The notes: generated by a model from the letters alone, not told the origin. Positions 4,457-15,851 are shown, numbered from the stretch's first letter. The stretch: DNA of 19,687 nt from Candidatus Altiarchaeota archaeon (GCA_043800705.1 JAZDMS010000041.1:1-19687); one strand, 5' to 3'. Numbers and translations: made by a program.

Positions 4457-5170
4457 TCAGGTTTTTCTCCGGTAGCCCAGTCTCAACCTGAACAGGCTGA
4501 CGTACCTGAGCCCCATCCGCAGCATGTTGAATTTAGGCTGGCCGGCCCTCCTGTCGAAATAGGTTGTGGGGACCTCGCTTAACCTGAACCCAGCCAGGTG
4601 GGCCTTTATCGCGAATTCCGGGCTTATTGCGAAGTCTCCGGACTCTATCTTTGCCTTTTCGAGGATTTTCCTCCTGAAGCCCCTGTATGCGTTGGTTGCG
4701 TCATGGATCGGCAATCCGAATATCAGCCGCGCAAGCTTCGTATACGTCGACCCGTACATGGCCTTGTCTATCCCGAGCTCGCCCCTCGAGCCTCCGCTCA
4801 TGTAGCGCGAGGCGACGACCATGTCGAAGCCTTCATCGAGCTTTTTGACGATTTCCCTTATCGATACGAGATTGTCGGAGCGGTCTGCCATGACCCACAC
4901 CACATACTCCCCCTTTGCCGCCCTGGAGCCCTCGATGAGGGCGTATCCCATGCCGTTATCCCCCTTCCTGCGATGGATGCAGGATATCCTGGGATTCGAT
5001 GCCGCCAGGTTGTCGCACAGGTCGGCGGTTCCGTCGCTCGAATTGTCGTCGACAAGGATGATCTCGGAGGGGCCGTCGCCGAGGGCTTCGAGTATGTCGT
5101 TTACGAGCGGATGGAGGTTGTCTTCTTCGTTGTAGGCTGGCACCACGACCGACAGCTTCAAAGGATCCAT
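4457..5170 (-). CDS. GT2 glycosyltransferase, polyprenol/dolichol-phosphate sugar synthase-like (DPM1/ArnC-like)
   Basis: LSVVVPAYNEE; VDDNSSDGT; MAD metal-binding motif; DMVVASRY; EVPTTYFDRRAGQPK. ATG 5170 preferred over GTG 5176. Confidence 0.9.
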   Translation of the reverse strand: MDPLKLSVVVPAYNEEDNLHPLVNDILEALGDGPSEIILVDDNSSDGTADLCDNLAASNPRISCIHRRKGDNGMGYALIEGSRAAKGEYVVWVMADRSDNLVSIREIVKKLDEGFDMVVASRYMSGGSRGELGIDKAMYGSTYTKLARLIFGLPIHDATNAYRGFRRKILEKAKIESGDFAISPEFAIKAHLAGFRLSEVPTTYFDRRAGQPKFNMLRMGLRYVSLFRLRLGYRRKT

Positions 5171-5172
5171 TG

Positions 5173-6297
5173 TCACTTCTCCAATAGATTCCTTTCGGCA
5201 AGCTCATTGAGCGCCTTCTGGCTCATGTCGACTGCATCCTGCTTCCTCCCCCACTGCACGAGGCCAGCCAGGCCATCCTCGAAGGATATCGTCGGCTTGT
5301 AGCCCACCTTCTTGATCTTTGAAATATCCGCAAAACAGTGGCGGATGTCGCCAGCCCTGAACTTGTTTTTTATCTCGGGTTTGATCTTCTTCCCGTAGAG
5401 TCTGGCGAATGTTTCCGCGATGTGCAGGACTGACGTCGGCCTCCCGCTGCCGACGTTGAACATCTCGTAGTCCGCCTTCGAGCTCTCCAAGGCTATCATG
5501 TTCGCCCGGACTATGTCCCTTACGTCGATGAAGTCGCGGGTCTGCAGGCCGTCTTCGTATATTACGGGGGGGTTGTCGTTCTTTATGTTCGACTGGAAGA
5601 TGGCGCAGACCCCTGTGTAGGGGTTGCTGAGAGACTGCCTCGGGCCGAATACGTTGAAGTACCTGAGGGCGACGGACGGGATACCGTAAGCCTTGCCGAC
5701 GGAGAGGAACAACTCCTCGTGGTCGCGCTTCCCTATCGCGTAGACGGAGGTCGGCCTAAGGGGTTTCTCCTCTGGGGTGGGTATCGGTTTCGCGGGTTTT
5801 CCGCATGTCGGGCATTTCATCCCCCACTCGTGGCCCTCAAGCTGCTTCGGGGGGCGGAAGTCGGGTGTGATCCTCCCGCACGAATCGCATTCGTACGCGC
5901 CCTCCCCGTATATGCTCATAGAGGATGCGACTATCATGCGCCTTATGCCATGGCTGCCGTTGACGATCTCGTCCAGCAGGACTGCGGCGCCGAGCGAGTT
6001 GACGCTCGTATAGTGCTCTATCTGATACATCGACTGGCCGACGCCGACGGCCGCGGCCTCGTGGAATACGACATCCACGTCTTGGAGGGCCTTCTTCAGG
6101 GACGGCCTGTCCCTGACGTCGCCTTCTATGAATTCCGCCTTCGGGTTGAGGTAGTCCGGCCTCTTCCGCCCTATGCCGTGTACTTGGGGGTCGAGGCAGT
6201 CGAGTATCCTCACACTGTGGCCCCTTTCCACAAGCCCGTCGACTATGTGTGAGCCTATGAATCCCGCCCCGCCGGTGACCAGTATGCTCTTTTTCAT
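5173..6297 (-). CDS. NAD-dependent NDP-sugar epimerase/dehydratase (extended SDR, WbiB-like) with a four-Cys insert
   Basis: TGGAGFIG; ASSMSIYGEG; YAIGK (YxxxK); LRYFNVFGPRQ; insert CDSC...CPTC. ATGA overlap with the upstream gene. Confidence 0.92.
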   Translation of the reverse strand: MKKSILVTGGAGFIGSHIVDGLVERGHSVRILDCLDPQVHGIGRKRPDYLNPKAEFIEGDVRDRPSLKKALQDVDVVFHEAAAVGVGQSMYQIEHYTSVNSLGAAVLLDEIVNGSHGIRRMIVASSMSIYGEGAYECDSCGRITPDFRPPKQLEGHEWGMKCPTCGKPAKPIPTPEEKPLRPTSVYAIGKRDHEELFLSVGKAYGIPSVALRYFNVFGPRQSLSNPYTGVCAIFQSNIKNDNPPVIYEDGLQTRDFIDVRDIVRANMIALESSKADYEMFNVGSGRPTSVLHIAETFARLYGKKIKPEIKNKFRAGDIRHCFADISKIKKVGYKPTISFEDGLAGLVQWGRKQDAVDMSQKALNELAERNLLEK

Positions 6298-7301
6298 TTG
6301 AAAAGGCCTATGTGCTGGCTTGTCCAGTCAGCTATCCTCCTGACGCCTTCCCTGACGCCGACTTTCGGCTTCCAGCCGACGGCCTTCTTTATCTTTCTCG
6401 TATCGCTGACGTATACCTTCTGGTCGCCCATCCGCCAGTCGCCGTATCCGACTTCTGATCTCTTGCCTGTGACGTCCTCTATGATTCCGAGAAGCTCGTC
6501 GAGGGAGGTGGTGAACTCGGTCCCGCCGCCGAGGTTGTATGCCTGGCCGCTGGTCTTTTTGATGTTCAGGGCCAGCTTCTCGAAGGCCGAGTTCTGGTCC
6601 GTGACGTATAGTATGTCCCTGACCTGCTTGCCGTCTCCGTATATCGTGATGGGTTTGCCTGTGACCGCGGCGATGATGAACCAAGCCACCCAGCCCTGGT
6701 CCTCGTTTCCGAATTGCCTCGTCCCGTAGATGCAGCTCATCCTCGGCTTCGCGACCTTGAGGCCGAAGCTCTCCTTATACGTGTCGAGTATGAATTCCGC
6801 GTTTATCTTGCTGCCGCCGTAAGGGCAGTTCGTCTCCAGCGGATATGATTCGTCTATTCCTCTGATCTTCTTGTACATGTACCTAGTCTTGCCTTTGACG
6901 ACTGGCAGTTCGAGGTCGCCGTAGACCTTGTTGGTAGAACAGAACACGACGGCGGGGTCGCACCCGGATTTCCGGACGGCCTCGCAGAGGTTGAAGGTGC
7001 CGACCGCGTTGGTGTTGAAGTCGAGGCGGGGGTCCGTGAGGGATGTGGTGACCGCGACCTGTGCGGCGCAGTGGTATACTATGTCCAGGCCGTCCATGAG
7101 ACCGTCGAACGCCGTCGGGTCCGATACGTCGGCCTTTCTGAAGTCGACGCCCGGATATTCCTTTTCGAGGAATTCGATGTTGTATCTGGTCCGCGACAGG
7201 TTGTCGACGACGGTGACCTTGTCGCCCTTCCTGAGGTGATGTTCGGCCAGGTGGGAGCCGATGAAGCCCGCGCCGCCTGTGACAAGGATGCTGCGTTCCA
7301 T
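6294..7301 (-). CDS. rfbE: CDP-paratose 2-epimerase (CDP-tyvelose epimerase)-like SDR
   Basis: TGGAGFIG; AAQVAVTTSLTDPRLDF; STNKVYG; PYGGSK; RMSCIYGTRQFGNEDQGWVAWF, typical of the RfbE family. The actual substrate is uncertain. Confidence 0.8.
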   Translation of the reverse strand: MERSILVTGGAGFIGSHLAEHHLRKGDKVTVVDNLSRTRYNIEFLEKEYPGVDFRKADVSDPTAFDGLMDGLDIVYHCAAQVAVTTSLTDPRLDFNTNAVGTFNLCEAVRKSGCDPAVVFCSTNKVYGDLELPVVKGKTRYMYKKIRGIDESYPLETNCPYGGSKINAEFILDTYKESFGLKVAKPRMSCIYGTRQFGNEDQGWVAWFIIAAVTGKPITIYGDGKQVRDILYVTDQNSAFEKLALNIKKTSGQAYNLGGGTEFTTSLDELLGIIEDVTGKRSEVGYGDWRMGDQKVYVSDTRKIKKAVGWKPKVGVREGVRRIADWTSQHIGLFK

Positions 7302-7315
7302 GGAGTAATGATTAT

Positions 7316-8251
7316 CTACAGTACATTATAAATCTTTCTGACCCACTCCACGGTCTCCTTGAGGCCTTCCTCGAATGTTTTTTTCGGCCTCCATCCCAGC
7401 TCCTTTCTGGCTTTTGAGGTGTCCGATTCCGTGTGTTCGACGTCGCCTTTCTGGTCAGGGACGTACTTGATAGTCCCTGTTCCGACCTGGGCTATGATTC
7501 TCTCGGCCAGTTCCTTGACTGTGATCGTCGTCCCGCCGCCGACGTTGTATATTCCGCTGCCTTTGGCCATGGCCTTGACCGTCGCATCGACGGCGTCGGA
7601 GACGTGGGTGAAGTCCCTGCTCTTGGAGCCGTCGCCGTATACTTCCAACTGGCCGCCCTCCAATGCGGTCCTGGTGAACTTGTGGATTGCCAGGTCAGGG
7701 CGAATCCGGGGGCCATAGACGGTGAAGTACCTGAGGCCTACGGAGTCAATGCCGTGCAGTTCCCCGTATACCCTGAAGTAGTGTTCGCATGCGAGCTTGC
7801 TGACCCCATAAGGGGATATGGGATCCGTCGGGTGCCCCTCATCGAACGGGAGACGGACGACCTTCCCGTAGACGGAAGACGATGACGCATACACGACCTT
7901 TTTGACATCCGACCCGCGCACAGCCTCCAGCAGGTTCAGCGTCCCCTGGACGTTGACCTCGCTAGTCTTCAACGGGTCTTGGACGGATGCCCTCACACCG
8001 GCCTGCGCGGCCTCGTGTATGACGTACTCCGGGTTTTCTGTTTTCAGTATCCGGTCCACGGCCTTCGCATCCCGGATATCCGCCTTGACCAGCCTGCAAT
8101 CTAACCCTTTAAGGTTCTCCTTCTTCACCTCGGGGCTGTAGTAGGGGTCGAGGTTGTCCAGGCACAAGACCTCATGGCCTTCCGATACCAGCCGCTCACA
8201 GAGGTGGCTGCCGATGAACCCTGCGCCGCCGGTGACGAGCACTTTTGCCAT
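7316..8251 (-). CDS. NAD-dependent UDP-sugar 4-epimerase (UDP-glucuronate/UDP-glucose 4-epimerase-like)
   Basis: TGGAGFIG; HEAAQAGVRAS; YASSSSVYG; SPYGVSK; LRYFTVYGPRIRPDLAI. Confidence 0.9.
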   Translation of the reverse strand: MAKVLVTGGAGFIGSHLCERLVSEGHEVLCLDNLDPYYSPEVKKENLKGLDCRLVKADIRDAKAVDRILKTENPEYVIHEAAQAGVRASVQDPLKTSEVNVQGTLNLLEAVRGSDVKKVVYASSSSVYGKVVRLPFDEGHPTDPISPYGVSKLACEHYFRVYGELHGIDSVGLRYFTVYGPRIRPDLAIHKFTRTALEGGQLEVYGDGSKSRDFTHVSDAVDATVKAMAKGSGIYNVGGGTTITVKELAERIIAQVGTGTIKYVPDQKGDVEHTESDTSKARKELGWRPKKTFEEGLKETVEWVRKIYNVL

Positions 8252-8297
8252 CGAATATACCTTGATTTATTGCAAATAAACGATGTTAACGGTAAGG

Positions 8298-9605
8298 TCA
8301 GGGGAACTCCTGCCCGAACTCCGCCTGGTATCCTGCGCCGAGTTCCTTCCTCCATTTATCCCAGTCCTGCAGGTGCTTGCCCCTTGCCTCTTTGAGGAGG
8401 TATTCCCACAGCTTCGGCGCCTCGATTCCCGACTGTCTTGCCAAGAGGTCGATGTTCGCCTTCAGGTATTCGTATTCCGGCGGCTGCCTGGAGTAATGTT
8501 CGACTATCCTATCAAGGCGTATGGTGGCGCGTGGCAGGGTATTCTTCCGGAGCATATCCTCAATATCCGCCAGTTTGGCGTTGGTTCTCGGCTTCAGCCT
8601 CAATTCCTCATACTGCGCCTCGGTGAGTGCCCCTTTCGGGATGCGCAAGCCCCCCGGAGTCCGCCTCAGTGCGAGCCCGAACAGCACCAGGCCTGCATCG
8701 GCATTGGCGTTAACCCATCCCCGCAGGGATTTTTCCGGGGCATTGACTCTTTCTGCGAACTCCTTCACAGTGTAATGGGACGATAGTGTCTCCATCCTTT
8801 GCTTGAAGTGGCTCCTTATTTCCGCAGCCTCCTCTGGGCTGAATAGGAACTGGTTGGTTCCCTTCTCAGTCTCCCGGTCTATCTCCCTGCCCATGCCGGA
8901 GGCCAGCATCACCCCGAACCTGGGCCCTCTTTCCGCGACATACAGCTCCATCGCCCTCTTCATAATCCCGCATTCCTGGGCGAGTTCGAGCGTGAACCTG
9001 TGTCCGCGATATTGCTTCGGGAGCCTGGCACGCCGCGCCTCCCAATAGAGCATCCTGCCCCACTCGCGCAGCCTGGGCTCGTCGTCCAACAGGTCTTTGG
9101 GGATGTAGTAGTGTATGTCGCTCCTGGGCTTGTGCCTGATGATCCTCACCCCGCAGACTAATTTTTCGGAAGGTTTTTCATCCCCGAATATGTCGTCCAG
9201 CCATTCGTGTATTGAGGTCGCATTCCCCACGCCGAATATCTCCTTCATTTTCTCCCGGCTCATCAATTCCCCGATACTCCCGGCAGTGACGTGGTCGTCG
9301 CCGATGGCGCCCTTTACACAGTAGTGTCCTTGGACGGCCTGAAGTTGCGCCAGAGTCAGGTACCGTTTTGAGCCGACGAGGATTCTCCCAACCCCAGCGT
9401 CTGGGTGGCGGTCGACGAACTGGTGGAGCGCGCTGACATTGACACCCAACGTATCCTGCACGAGCTTCGACGGGCAGATGACCAGCTTCCTTCCCCCCGC
9501 CGCATCCGACAACTTCATAAGCTCGGGTATGTCGGGCATGTTCTGGGACGATGTGGTGATCCGTCCGCCAGGGTCAATCGTTACCACCACATCCACATCA
9601 ACCAT
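8298..9605 (-). CDS. Hypothetical protein with putative tandem MerR/Xis-like winged-HTH repeats
   Basis: 435-aa ORF filling the gap between two recognisable genes. Four HTH-like segments seen by eye, the clearest being YTVKEFAERVNAPEKSLRGWV...RRTPGGLRIP. Confidence 0.7.
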   Translation of the reverse strand: MVDVDVVVTIDPGGRITTSSQNMPDIPELMKLSDAAGGRKLVICPSKLVQDTLGVNVSALHQFVDRHPDAGVGRILVGSKRYLTLAQLQAVQGHYCVKGAIGDDHVTAGSIGELMSREKMKEIFGVGNATSIHEWLDDIFGDEKPSEKLVCGVRIIRHKPRSDIHYYIPKDLLDDEPRLREWGRMLYWEARRARLPKQYRGHRFTLELAQECGIMKRAMELYVAERGPRFGVMLASGMGREIDRETEKGTNQFLFSPEEAAEIRSHFKQRMETLSSHYTVKEFAERVNAPEKSLRGWVNANADAGLVLFGLALRRTPGGLRIPKGALTEAQYEELRLKPRTNAKLADIEDMLRKNTLPRATIRLDRIVEHYSRQPPEYEYLKANIDLLARQSGIEAPKLWEYLLKEARGKHLQDWDKWRKELGAGYQAEFGQEFP

Positions 9606-9678
9606 CTGAGGACACCATTTACCTACTGGAACGGCGAGAATTAAAGATAGGACGGCATATCCGGCCGTGCAATACCGG

Positions 9679-11190
9679 CTATGCAGCCCAGCACCTGCCC
9701 CAAATATTGCCGCTGTCGTAGTCTATGACCGCCTTCCTGCCGGTGAAGCTGTCGCATACGGCCTTGTCTGAGAGGCTTTGTGCGTCCCAGTTTATGGACG
9801 TGCAGCATACGTAGTCCGCGCGATATTGCGATAGTACCCGTTCCATGTCGCTGCCGTCCGGCCTCGGTATCCCGCCGCCCATAGTCCCGAGGCGCAGGCA
9901 CTGTCTGCCGCTGAAGTAGAGGCACTCTTGGACGTTGAACGGCATGATTATCCGGCTGCCTGCCGGAAGGGACGCCATCTCGTCCCAGAACGGGGCGTAC
10001 CCCGCCCGGATGTTTCGATATGTGTACGAGTATGCGTATGAGGCGCCGAGCATGCAGATGAGAAGGAGAGCGGCAAGGACGACTGCAGGGGAGCGCATCG
10101 GCGCCCCCTTGAAGGATTTCTCGAATTTTATGTCGATCTTGCCTACGCCTTCCGAGATGGCTATGATCAGGAAGGGCGCCAGGGGAGTGAACATCCGCGC
10201 GGAGACGCTGCTTGAAAAAGGGACCAGCGATCCCAAGAACAGGATGAGGGGAAGCATGGCCCGCCTGTGCCCCACCATGTGAGCCGCCCCGTATGCTGCG
10301 GCCAGGGTGAATCCGAGGGCTGCCAGGAACCAGAACAGGAGAGGCATCATCCCGTACGGGTAGGTCTTCAGGGCGACGTCTATCTTGTGCGCGAGCTCGT
10401 CGCCGGAGTTCGGGGCTCCGATCCAGAAGTCGAAGAAGAGGGTCACCCACCGGCTTGGGTTCGGCAGGTCCCGGATGGAGTCGACGAATGGCCTGCCCTG
10501 GATCGCTTCTACGTCCTTCGGATAGTACCCCCCGGAGACCTTCGGCCAGATGGGATTTCCGAAGACTGCATAGTTCCTCGCATACCACGGAGAGGCGAGG
10601 ACGACGGCGATGACGAAGAACAGCAGGCCTTTTTTCCAGTTCTTTGCGAAAAGGTGGAGGGACAATGCGGCCACGACCACGAAGCCGTGATAGTGGGTGA
10701 GGGCGCACAGGGCGGACGCGCCTGCCGCATACGCGAAGTCCCGGGAATCCGCGGACTCCAGGAAGCTGTAGTAGAAGTGTAGTGCGCAGACCGCGAGGAA
10801 GAACATCAGGGTCTCGAAGTATCCTATGCCGCAGTAATAGACGTGAAACGGCAGGAACGCGAGGACTGCAGCGGCCGTAAAAGACTGCTTCGGATAGAAC
10901 CTGGAGGCGAACCGGTGGAACATCAGGAGGCCCGCGACCCCGAAGACCAGCGGAGACAGCGTGAGTATGCCGGTCGCCGTGTAGATGATCGCGGTCAATA
11001 TGTGAAAGAGCGGCGGATACCAGAGGGGAACGACTCCGACGACGCCGACGGCCGGCGGGGCAATGTGGTCGGCGAGGTACTTCGACGCGTAGAAGTTTAG
11101 GCCGCCGTCGCCGGTCACGGGAGCAGTGAGCCAGAAGATGATCCGCACGAGAATGCCAAGCCCGACAATGGCCTGAGTCTTTCGGTCCAT
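9679..11190 (-). CDS. Multi-pass GT-C fold glycosyltransferase (ArnT/PMT/GT39-like)
   Basis: Polytopic membrane protein; TGDGG loop after the first TM helix; WYPPLFH; PWYARNYAVFGNP (shared pattern with 736-2457). Confidence 0.82.
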   Translation of the reverse strand: MDRKTQAIVGLGILVRIIFWLTAPVTGDGGLNFYASKYLADHIAPPAVGVVGVVPLWYPPLFHILTAIIYTATGILTLSPLVFGVAGLLMFHRFASRFYPKQSFTAAAVLAFLPFHVYYCGIGYFETLMFFLAVCALHFYYSFLESADSRDFAYAAGASALCALTHYHGFVVVAALSLHLFAKNWKKGLLFFVIAVVLASPWYARNYAVFGNPIWPKVSGGYYPKDVEAIQGRPFVDSIRDLPNPSRWVTLFFDFWIGAPNSGDELAHKIDVALKTYPYGMMPLLFWFLAALGFTLAAAYGAAHMVGHRRAMLPLILFLGSLVPFSSSVSARMFTPLAPFLIIAISEGVGKIDIKFEKSFKGAPMRSPAVVLAALLLICMLGASYAYSYTYRNIRAGYAPFWDEMASLPAGSRIIMPFNVQECLYFSGRQCLRLGTMGGGIPRPDGSDMERVLSQYRADYVCCTSINWDAQSLSDKAVCDSFTGRKAVIDYDSGNIWGRCWAA

Positions 11191-14752: not shown

Positions 14753-15283
14753 ATGAACAAGGCGGTTTTCCTCGACCGTGACGGGACCATCAACAAGCAC
14801 ACCACAGGGTATGTAACGTCTTGGAAGATGTTCAGGTTCCTGCCGAATTCGCTGGAGGCGCTTAGGGAGCTGGCCAGGACGGACTACAAGGTCATCGTCG
14901 TCACGAACCAGAGCGCAGTCGCGAGAGGACTGATGAGCAGGGAGAACCTCGAAGACATACACGAGCGGATGCTCTCACATGTCGAGGAGGCCGGAGGCCG
15001 CATCGACGCGATCTACGTCTGCGCCCACCACCCAGACGAGAGGTGCGCCTGCAGGAAGCCGCTGACCGGCCTCCTTGAGTTGGCGAAGGAGACGTTCGAC
15101 CTGGACCTGAAAAAGTCATGGATGGTGGGAGACAACACGAAAGACGCCGTAACAGGGAAAAAAACGGGCTGTAGGACGATACTTGTCGAGACAGGCTACG
15201 GCGGAAAGGACGGCCTACACAAGATCTCCCCAGATTATTGGGTGAAGGACCTGAAGGAGGCGGTTGAAGTAATCCGTGGTTAA
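14753..15283 (+). CDS. gmhB: D-glycero-D-manno-heptose 1,7-bisphosphate phosphatase (HAD IIIA)
   Basis: KAVFLDRDGTIN; VVTNQS; CAHHPDERCACRKP zinc loop; WMVGD. gmhA is nearby. Start at ATG 14753. Confidence 0.9.
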   Translation: MNKAVFLDRDGTINKHTTGYVTSWKMFRFLPNSLEALRELARTDYKVIVVTNQSAVARGLMSRENLEDIHERMLSHVEEAGGRIDAIYVCAHHPDERCACRKPLTGLLELAKETFDLDLKKSWMVGDNTKDAVTGKKTGCRTILVETGYGGKDGLHKISPDYWVKDLKEAVEVIRG

Positions 15284-15810
15284 CTTTTCCCCTGAATTAC
15301 CTCGAATAGTCTAGTGACAGCGCCCGGGACATCGTACATCTCCCCCGAGACGGGAGGCTGATAATTTGGTGTGAAAATTGTCACAGGAGGGTCTCCGCGG
15401 CCTTTGAATGCCTTTGCCAGCAGCTCCTTAACCCCTTCTCCTGTTCTTATATGTAATGGTGTTGCTACCACAACCGCCGGACATCCCCTGGTTTTTTCAT
15501 AGAGGTGATCCAAGCCCCTCTGGCTCATATTCCCCGTACTCACAGTAGAGTATTTACCGTCTAGGAACATATCCAAACCCAAGGGTTCGAAGATGAAGCC
15601 GACCTCAAGTTGACGCATATTCGCTTCTTCAGCCAGCCTCAACGCCTGCAGCTGGCTTTGCCCAAGTCCTGTACCACACATGACAGGTATCCGGGAGACT
15701 CTCTTCGCATTTCTGACATTCGATGTACACAGTTCATCTACGAAATAAGGCATCAAATCAAGGGGTAATTCACCCACCACCCACTGGATGCGCTGAGGGA
15801 TAGGAACCAT
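15280..15810 (-). CDS. Hypothetical protein with PTS EIIB-like/LMW-PTP-fold Cys loop
   Basis: IPVMCGTGLGQSQLQALRL motif; fills the gmhB-Lon gap; shares a TTAA stop overlap with gmhB; visibly more AT-rich than neighbours. Confidence 0.6.
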   Translation of the reverse strand: MVPIPQRIQWVVGELPLDLMPYFVDELCTSNVRNAKRVSRIPVMCGTGLGQSQLQALRLAEEANMRQLEVGFIFEPLGLDMFLDGKYSTVSTGNMSQRGLDHLYEKTRGCPAVVVATPLHIRTGEGVKELLAKAFKGRGDPPVTIFTPNYQPPVSGEMYDVPGAVTRLFEVIQGKS

Positions 15811-15851
15811 CAGATACAATCTTTATAGTCGTATATCCTAAAAGCTAGGTG

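Follow-up and report, generated by a model that had tools for sequence, protein, structure and literature searches.

A duplicated A-B block of predicted winged-helix units in a lineage-restricted archaeal protein, a candidate single-chain DNA-binding protein

Winged helix-turn-helix (wHTH) domains of the MerR/excisionase kind are known to pair as symmetric dimers in MerR, to form non-covalent head-to-tail multimers in BldC, Xis and RdfS and, in one case (TraN), to be joined in a two-domain chain. BldC, the founding member of the BldC family of MerR-like proteins (PDB 6amk, 6ama), is described as multimerizing head-to-tail on direct repeats, with four subunits on a 36-mer, and as distorting the DNA (PMC5859096). 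Cooperative filament-like binding has also been reported for RdfS and Xis (PMC11963761). TraN of pIP501 is described as a promoter repressor whose single chain contains two MerR-like winged helices, which fill two neighboring major grooves of an asymmetric site (PMC6158623). Full-text literature searches found no description of covalent arrays of the MerR/HTH_17 fold. Here, such a candidate array is described from a 19,687-nucleotide stretch of DNA of a Candidatus Altiarchaeota archaeon (GCA_043800705.1, JAZDMS010000041.1:1-19687), referred to as a whole as the window. The protein, P0001, is encoded by an open reading frame (ORF) on the minus strand, and had been described in an earlier reading of the sequence alone as an orphan built from four tandem MerR/Xis-like units in an (AB)(AB) duplication. 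By analogy with the systems above, P0001 is probably (about 0.6) a single-chain DNA-binding regulator or architectural protein that is lineage-restricted and accessory.

The repeat is not detectable from the single P0001 sequence. Self-BLASTP returned the identity match alone, and Smith-Waterman comparison of the units as first drawn by eye gave z 2.0 for A1/A2 (equaled by 25 of 500 shuffles) and z -0.2 for B1/B2 (287 of 500). At the profile level, the repeat is clear. Unit profiles were taken as sub-alignments of eight family members (the alignment labeled A1, as distinct from unit A1) and compared profile to profile. The like-type pairs A1~A2 (probability 94.0%, E 1.4e-7, 63 columns) and B1~B2 (95.2%, E 2.5e-8, 53 columns) were stronger than the cross pairs A2~B2 (84.8%, E 6.6e-6, 62 columns), A1~B1 (73.8%, E 2.9e-5, 18 columns), A1~B2 (64.6%, E 6.3e-5, 52 columns) and B1~A2 (5.1%, E 0.0077, 16 columns). 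No column shuffle equaled the observed score (0/60 per unit pair), and B1~B2 was found again with hhalign using independent alignments built from DNA references (95.4%, E 1.7e-8). The two halves of the protein (residues 38-200 and 198-345) were also compared, using 10 rows of a 13-sequence family alignment from which two rows and one short row had been dropped. They align colinearly, residues 46-176 against 205-331, with a probability of 98.2% (E 3.9e-14, 112 columns), compared with 29.6% at most for an off-register alignment. The reversed control gave 0.2%, and none of 40 shuffles equaled the observed score of 86.5 (null mean 9.9, maximum 15.8). The residue pairings are those that had first been made by eye. 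Because the halves align in register with clean controls, the (AB)(AB) block duplication is confirmed at the level of family profiles, as the sequence-only reading had proposed. The order A1-B1-connector-A2-B2 is common to every full-length family member, so the duplication is older than the family.

An AlphaFold2 model of P0001 built on the eight-sequence alignment has a mean predicted local distance difference test (pLDDT) score of 79.4 and a predicted template modeling (pTM) score of 0.53. In this model, each of the four units consists of a short strand, two helices forming the HTH, a beta-hairpin wing and a further helix, and hardly any flexible linker separates the units, which are packed together (Table 1). 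Unit B1 begins at residue 104 in the model rather than at 113, where it had been started by eye; the helical tail proposed to follow the units is also seen. In unit A1 the strand spans residues 41-45. Unit B1 is modeled as a strand (105-107), three helices (108-114, 117-124, 129-140), three strands (147-150, 153-158, 165-169) and a final helix (170-174), with an insertion of 7-9 residues before the recognition helix in both P0001 and its relative P0002. Unit A2 opens with a strand at 203-204 and has its wing at 232-255, the wing loop (227-252) being long and of low confidence. An I-P-K motif closes both B1 and B2. Each recognition helix closes with an aromatic residue (F, W, Y and W in turn) that is retained in the family consensus; an aromatic at this place is typical of MerR/HTH_17. 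The N-terminal element is conserved across the family, with an invariant G14. The most conserved stretch of the family is the end of B1 together with the connector (165-205), which holds seven of the nine invariant columns (P169, D175, W182, R192, L195, P196 and F204); the connector itself has a net charge of +5 and an isoelectric point (pI) of 11.3. The tail is common only to P0002 and, in part, to P0007, the remaining members having other tails, and its structural matches are generic helical ones only.

The type of fold is shown for three of the four units. MerR-like "wing + helix" elements close the A-type units, and B2 finds its best fold match in Tn916 Xis, in agreement with the MerR-like and excisionase-like endings read earlier by eye. 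Folded alone, B2 reached a pLDDT of 71.8, and its structure matches were led by Tn916 Xis (4.5), BmrR (4.4), BldC (4.4), Par (4.2) and RdfS (3.9). Among the 50 rows listed in this structure search, 13 are titled MerR, excisionase or Xis, and many further rows are presumably MerR-type. Foldseek against the PDB gave no match at E <= 0.001 for B2 alone (best E 0.18, of a kind that agrees) or for the whole model. BFVD likewise gave none at that threshold, the best row being a Rhodococcus phage HTH protein (E 0.01). In ESM Atlas, nine of the ten structure neighbors are clusters with at least 90% HTH_17 members, which serves as a lead only at template modeling (TM) scores of 0.34 or less. For B1, a profile search of PDB sequences pointed to RacA (E 0.0063) and to the lambda small terminase 1j9i (E 0.16); the B2 profile gave chance-level rows in the same search, such as PhoQ (E 0.32). 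The proposal of four MerR/HTH_17-type wHTH units is borne out by the model, by the profiles and by the fold of three units, but not by a fold match for B1 or by any significant Foldseek row.

P0001 itself stays below the Pfam gathering cut-offs for HTH_17 and MerR, with no family at E <= 0.1, and a further scan listed just HTH_Tnp_1 and DUF6757, each at E 0.1. PHROGs and NCBIfam gave no match for P0001, and only generic excisionase/HTH matches for one relative. Two paralogues score above the cut-offs. A 569-aa paralogue in the related genome G011 matches HTH_17 (PF12728) at 41.6 bits (cut-off 27), MerR (PF00376) at 39 (28.2) and MerR_1 (PF13411) at 31.2 (21.6), and P0008 matches HTH_17 at 30.6 bits (27). 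HTH matches are found at all four aligned unit positions, at residues 85-108, 209-230, 304-331 and 360-385 of P0008 and at 57-86, 184-204, 268-289 and 328-353 of the 569-aa protein. At the place aligned with B1, both matches (209-230; 184-204, with 41.6 bits) are to HTH_17. P0001 is placed in the HTH_17/MerR kind because it is homologous to these paralogues, and not by its own score.

The label of orphan given earlier was rejected. Seven proteins among 1.84 billion representatives match at E <= 0.001, all of the P0001 family, and a paralogue (P0005) is present in the same genome, with further copies in related genomes. The closest relative, P0002, is 57% identical over 81% of the query in the search alignment and 44% identical over the full BLASTP alignment; the six others have E values from 4e-33 to 8e-4. 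A word-indexed search restricted to longer proteins returned P0009 alone. The sole named database record found for the family is a "hypothetical protein" of a metagenome-assembled genome. Profile searches of 61 genomes of the phylum (here equivalent to the class) detected the family in four (G000, G004, G011 and G020, with 2, 1, 3 and 2 copies), which belong to one taxonomic family and to 2 of 31 genera; it was detected in none of the 13 with a completeness of 90% or more. A single-protein search detected it in 3 of the 61. Single-protein locus searches found no relative in genome contigs or viral contigs and, in metagenome contigs, only the 3.4-kb contig of P0002. In these searches, the family did not extend beyond a single archaeal family.

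Members differ in the number of units, with four in P0001, five in P0008 and in the 569-aa paralogue, and six in P0009 (689 aa). In the 13-sequence alignment, the fifth HTH unit of the former two is carried by insertions, and P0009 has two extra. Unit hidden Markov models match extra segments that were absent from their training set at E 5.6e-4, 6e-4 and 1.5e-5; stronger matches are circular, those segments being in the training set. Seven of eight tested members are basic (pI 8.7-9.8), and the 208-aa short form P0006 has a pI of 7.8. One G011 copy (G011:C59:6025-6995, L027) is split over two frames, with profile matches at 6025-6570 and 6366-6995, and the ORF called there holds A2-B2-tail only; the split reflects either a frameshift in a pseudogene or an error in the assembly. 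Upstream of P0004, and of its near-identical counterpart in G020 (on L003), lie ORFs of about 200 aa in the same orientation that have no Pfam match (L003 254-1456, L004 825-1433). An LxHLDCP motif is common to the two on L003, apparently paralogues of one another; nothing similar adjoins P0001.

The reading of P0001 as a single-chain DNA-binding protein draws on its fold, on the basic charge and on analogy. It would consist of four MerR/excisionase-type modules in one chain, derived from a doubled A-B block, with a basic helix joining the halves. Each module is predicted to insert its recognition helix into the major groove, so that one molecule would occupy about four successive groove positions. 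The expected site would be roughly 35-45 bp, because four BldC subunits cover 36 bp, or else two separate bipartite sites. P0001 might thereby achieve within one covalent chain the kind of binding that BldC and Xis reach through head-to-tail multimerization, and TraN as an "internal dimer" of two domains. The conserved connector may fix the geometry of the halves or add DNA contacts, and the variable tail could supply each paralogue with its own partners or oligomeric state. Its role would be that of a transcription regulator or local DNA-architectural protein with its own promoter, outside the surrounding sugar pathway.

Several points weigh against this reading. DNA binding by P0001 is a prediction, and no candidate DNA target site or motif was found. 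B1 has a net charge of -4 and no structural match of its own, only sequence-profile evidence, and P0001 has no match in Pfam, PHROG, NCBIfam or PADLOC. The pTM of 0.53 and the shallow alignments behind the structures (8 and 9 sequences) leave the relative placement of the units uncertain. Winged helices, moreover, also bind protein or RNA. A more specific and less probable version of the DNA-binding reading is that the family is a modular single-chain "pre-assembled filament", reading DNA head-to-tail with one unit per repeat of about 9-10 bp, in the manner of a BldC protomer. The connector would then set the pitch, and gain of units (4, 5, 6) would lengthen the recognized site. If true, this would be an archaeal family of long-site DNA-shaping regulators evolving by module duplication, with tails recruiting different partners.

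It could also be hypothesized that the four winged helices form a protein- or RNA-binding scaffold, as in RPC62, UFL1, the cullins and the four winged helices of SelB. The tight packing of the units and the acidic to neutral charge of B1 and A2 (net -4 and -1) are consistent with this, and the best whole-model Foldseek rows are such proteins (RPC62 E 0.044, UFL1 E 0.12, SelB E 0.97). However, these rows are not significant (probability 0.2 or less, TM about 0.14), whereas the per-domain matches are DNA-bound domains of MerR, Xis, Par, RacA and BldC. The paralogues retain HTH signatures of DNA-binding families, and the family proteins are basic overall, which makes a scaffold function unlikely.

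The P0001 gene is the sole long ORF with homologues at its position; ORFs overlapping it on the plus strand were rejected as shadows in a region of 58% GC. Stop-free homologues are present in four genomes and in metagenomes. Its start is supported by the conservation of the N-terminus with P0002, an orthologue 57% identical, and by a GGTG located 8 nt 5' of the ATG. An AT-rich box lies about 37 nt 5' of the ATG, and these two elements would act as ribosome-binding site and promoter, respectively. About 45 nt before the ATG (9606-9650, minus strand) align with the region upstream of P0002 (L028, about 1660-1704), sharing the blocks TTCCAGT and AATGGTGT, the latter containing the GGTG ribosome-binding-like site. 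Since the downstream regions of the two genes do not align, P0001 seems to have moved together with its own conserved control region. A sigma-70 promoter scan gave 0 sites, which is uninformative for an archaeon; the host is read as one because the window also encodes Gins51, ribosomal protein S27e and archease. No Rfam family or tRNA was found in the window. A search of sequencing runs returned one DNA run with a 0.07 share of words, and no RNA run was listed. Lying 10 nt past the stop of the upstream 503-aa gene, and just upstream of the promoter-like box of P0001, is a GC-rich hairpin with a stem of 5 bp and a loop of 7 nt, after which comes a T-rich run; it possibly acts as a terminator-like element bordering the insertion.

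P0001 is co-directional with its flanking genes, between the 503-aa PMT_2-like gene and the first of three epimerase/dehydratase genes in a cluster that also holds a GT2 gene, with gaps of 73 and 46 bp. In the congeners G001, G004 and G002, the orthologue of the 503-aa gene is directly followed by an epimerase gene, with gaps of 52, 46 and 9 bp. These are all three of the contigs that span the junction, a fourth (G003) ending inside the gene. Because the flanking genes are adjacent in 3/3 congeners examined, P0001 is an accessory insertion in the glycosylation cluster, as first supposed from the sequence; three losses are less likely. No direct repeats, target-site duplication or inverted repeats were seen flanking it. 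On contig 19, the same-genome paralogue P0005 is flanked by an ABCE1-like gene and a cupin gene, other copies adjoin genes for a proteasome subunit, an H+-pyrophosphatase or unknown proteins, and P0002 adjoins a Cys-rich protein gene and a small ORF on its 3.4-kb contig. P0001 has no neighbor in common with the paralogous loci and no partner gene is conserved, and so it is a stand-alone gene.

These contexts bear on the possibility that P0001 is a dedicated transcriptional regulator of the surrounding glycosylation cluster, acquired by this strain and controlling the flanking GT-C-like, epimerase and GT2 genes. Its co-directional position with short gaps and its own upstream signals would fit such a function. 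However, the same flanks do without it in the congeners, P0002 has no sugar genes beside it on its 3.4-kb contig, paralogues adjoin ABCE1, proteasome subunit, H+-pyrophosphatase and other genes, and the upstream 45 nt or so seem to have travelled with P0001. Control of the cluster is an improbable role on this evidence. The cluster itself (4457-11190, compared with L034, L035 and L036) is rearranged between congeners, with epimerase, GT2 and PMT_2-like genes that vary in number and order, and looks like a variable surface-glycan island; transaldolase, SIS, HAD and small membrane-protein genes stay linked across congeners. Elsewhere in the window, a 179-aa ORF (15280-15819, minus strand) between HAD phosphatase and AAA+ ATPase genes has no Pfam match.

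Table 1. Positions in the window of the P0001 gene, its parts and its flanks; secondary-structure elements are given in residues of P0001
Feature	Position	Strand	Description
Whole ORF, P0001	8298..9605	-	435 aa plus stop
N-terminal element, residues 1-40	9486..9605	-	beta-hairpin (2-10, 16-23) and helix 27-35
Unit A1, residues 41-101	9303..9485	-	strand, HTH (46-53, 57-66), hairpin 75-84, helix 85-95
Unit B1, residues 104-175	9081..9296	-	from model and alignment
Inter-half connector, residues 176-201	9003..9080	-	long basic helix 176-193
Unit A2, residues 202-276	8778..9002	-	HTH (205-212, 216-225), wing loop 227-252, helix 257-276
Unit B2, residues 277-340	8586..8777	-	strand 277-279, HTH (280-287, 291-301), hairpin 314-323, helix 329-336
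C-terminal helical tail, residues 341-435	8301..8585	-	five helices, pLDDT 38-73
Upstream intergenic region	9606..9678	-	hairpin, TATA-like box, GGTG
GGTG	9616-9613	-	
AT-rich TATA-like box	9646-9639	-	
Hairpin just past the stop of the upstream gene	9668-9652	-	
Upstream flank	9679..11190	-	503-aa membrane protein, weak PMT_2 (GT-C type glycosyltransferase) match (Pfam)
Downstream flank	7316..8251	-	NAD-dependent epimerase/dehydratase, 311 aa (Pfam)

P0001 might alternatively be the remnant of a mobile element, or a gene domesticated from one, such as a recombination directionality factor (RDF), a small-terminase-like protein or a partition (centromere-binding) protein. Its patchy, accessory distribution (4/61 genomes, 0/13 of those at least 90% complete), the clean single-gene insertion and the split G011 copy are compatible with such an origin, and pSK1 Par, RacA, Xis, RdfS and small terminases are among its best relatives by fold. 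On the other hand, a Pfam scan of 21 window ORFs detected no integrase family, in line with the sequence-only reading, and no integrase, terminase, ParA or other mobile-element family occurs among these ORFs or at the paralogous loci. Flanking direct repeats are lacking, tblastn of 50,697 phage and 72,556 plasmid records was negative, and viral contigs yielded no relative with P0001 or P0004 as query. The GC content of the gene is 0.579 and its third-position GC (GC3) 0.736, both close to those of its neighbors (GC3 0.75-0.80). A mobile-element origin is therefore considered very unlikely. A function in anti-phage defense (PADLOC mad1, MADS) was rejected: P0001 has no PADLOC match, and the mad1 matches of P0008, P0009, P0005 and L024:2175-3884 (E down to 1.8e-15) are limited to the HTH, at model positions of about 3-28 (up to 51) out of 60, with no defense genes seen in the neighborhoods scanned against Pfam, so mad1 picks up HTH_17-like domains in general here.

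The fold is well known, and uncharacterized covalent HTH_17-type arrays may exist in many bacteria, taken as a lead only. The P0001 family stands out by its two unit types, which alternate through block duplication, by its conserved connector, by its divergence beyond the reach of Pfam and by its occurrence in a single archaeal family. If P0001 is indeed a DNA-binding protein, its fixed chain of four units would amount to a nucleoprotein filament hard-wired in a natural experiment, and would be well suited to structure determination; the model is fairly confident already from only eight sequences. An unannotated, predicted DNA-binding family is added to a poorly known archaeal lineage, whose glycan gene clusters take up unrelated single genes. 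The practical gain would be modest until the DNA target is known.

pSK1 Par and RacA act in plasmid partition or chromosome anchoring. Both carry one MerR-like wHTH per chain plus a coiled coil (PDB 8csh, 5i41/5i44), compared with four in P0001, which has no ParA or segregation context among the scanned window ORFs or at the paralogous loci. The excisionases and RDFs (Tn916 Xis 1y6u, Pukovnik Xis 4j2n, HK022 Xis 1pm6, RdfS 8dgl) share the fold of the B-type and A-type units. However, they are single small domains encoded beside an integrase, whereas P0001 is a 435-aa protein of four units plus extras, with no integrase among the window ORFs or paralogue neighbors and no flanking direct repeats. 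Canonical MerR regulators (BmrR, SoxR, CueR, CadR, MtaN, HiNmlR) have an N-terminal wHTH and a "wing + helix" like those of the A-type units, and the structural matches span only the first 50-60 residues or so of MerR chains. In P0001, a tandem chain would take the place of the symmetric dimer; no antiparallel coiled-coil dimerization helix and no effector-binding domain were detected, and no MerR C-terminal or effector family was found in the libraries scanned. Bacterial multi-HTH_17 proteins (ESM Atlas clusters, mostly of Bacteroidota and Actinomycetota) are likewise chains of several HTH_17/MerR-type units, but no sequence relationship with them was detected among the 1.84 billion representatives. 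TraN of plasmid pIP501 (PDB 4p0y, 4p0z, 4pm3) has two domains to the four of P0001, and is bacterial, plasmid-borne and part of a conjugation operon. BldC of Streptomyces agrees in fold with single units of P0001, with undetectable sequence similarity. It is a 68-residue single bacterial domain forming a non-covalent multimer on DNA, in a family of stand-alone wHTH proteins of about 70 residues, whereas P0001 is a covalent chain of four divergent units of two types in one archaeal protein, to which a connector, an N-terminal hairpin and a helical tail are added.

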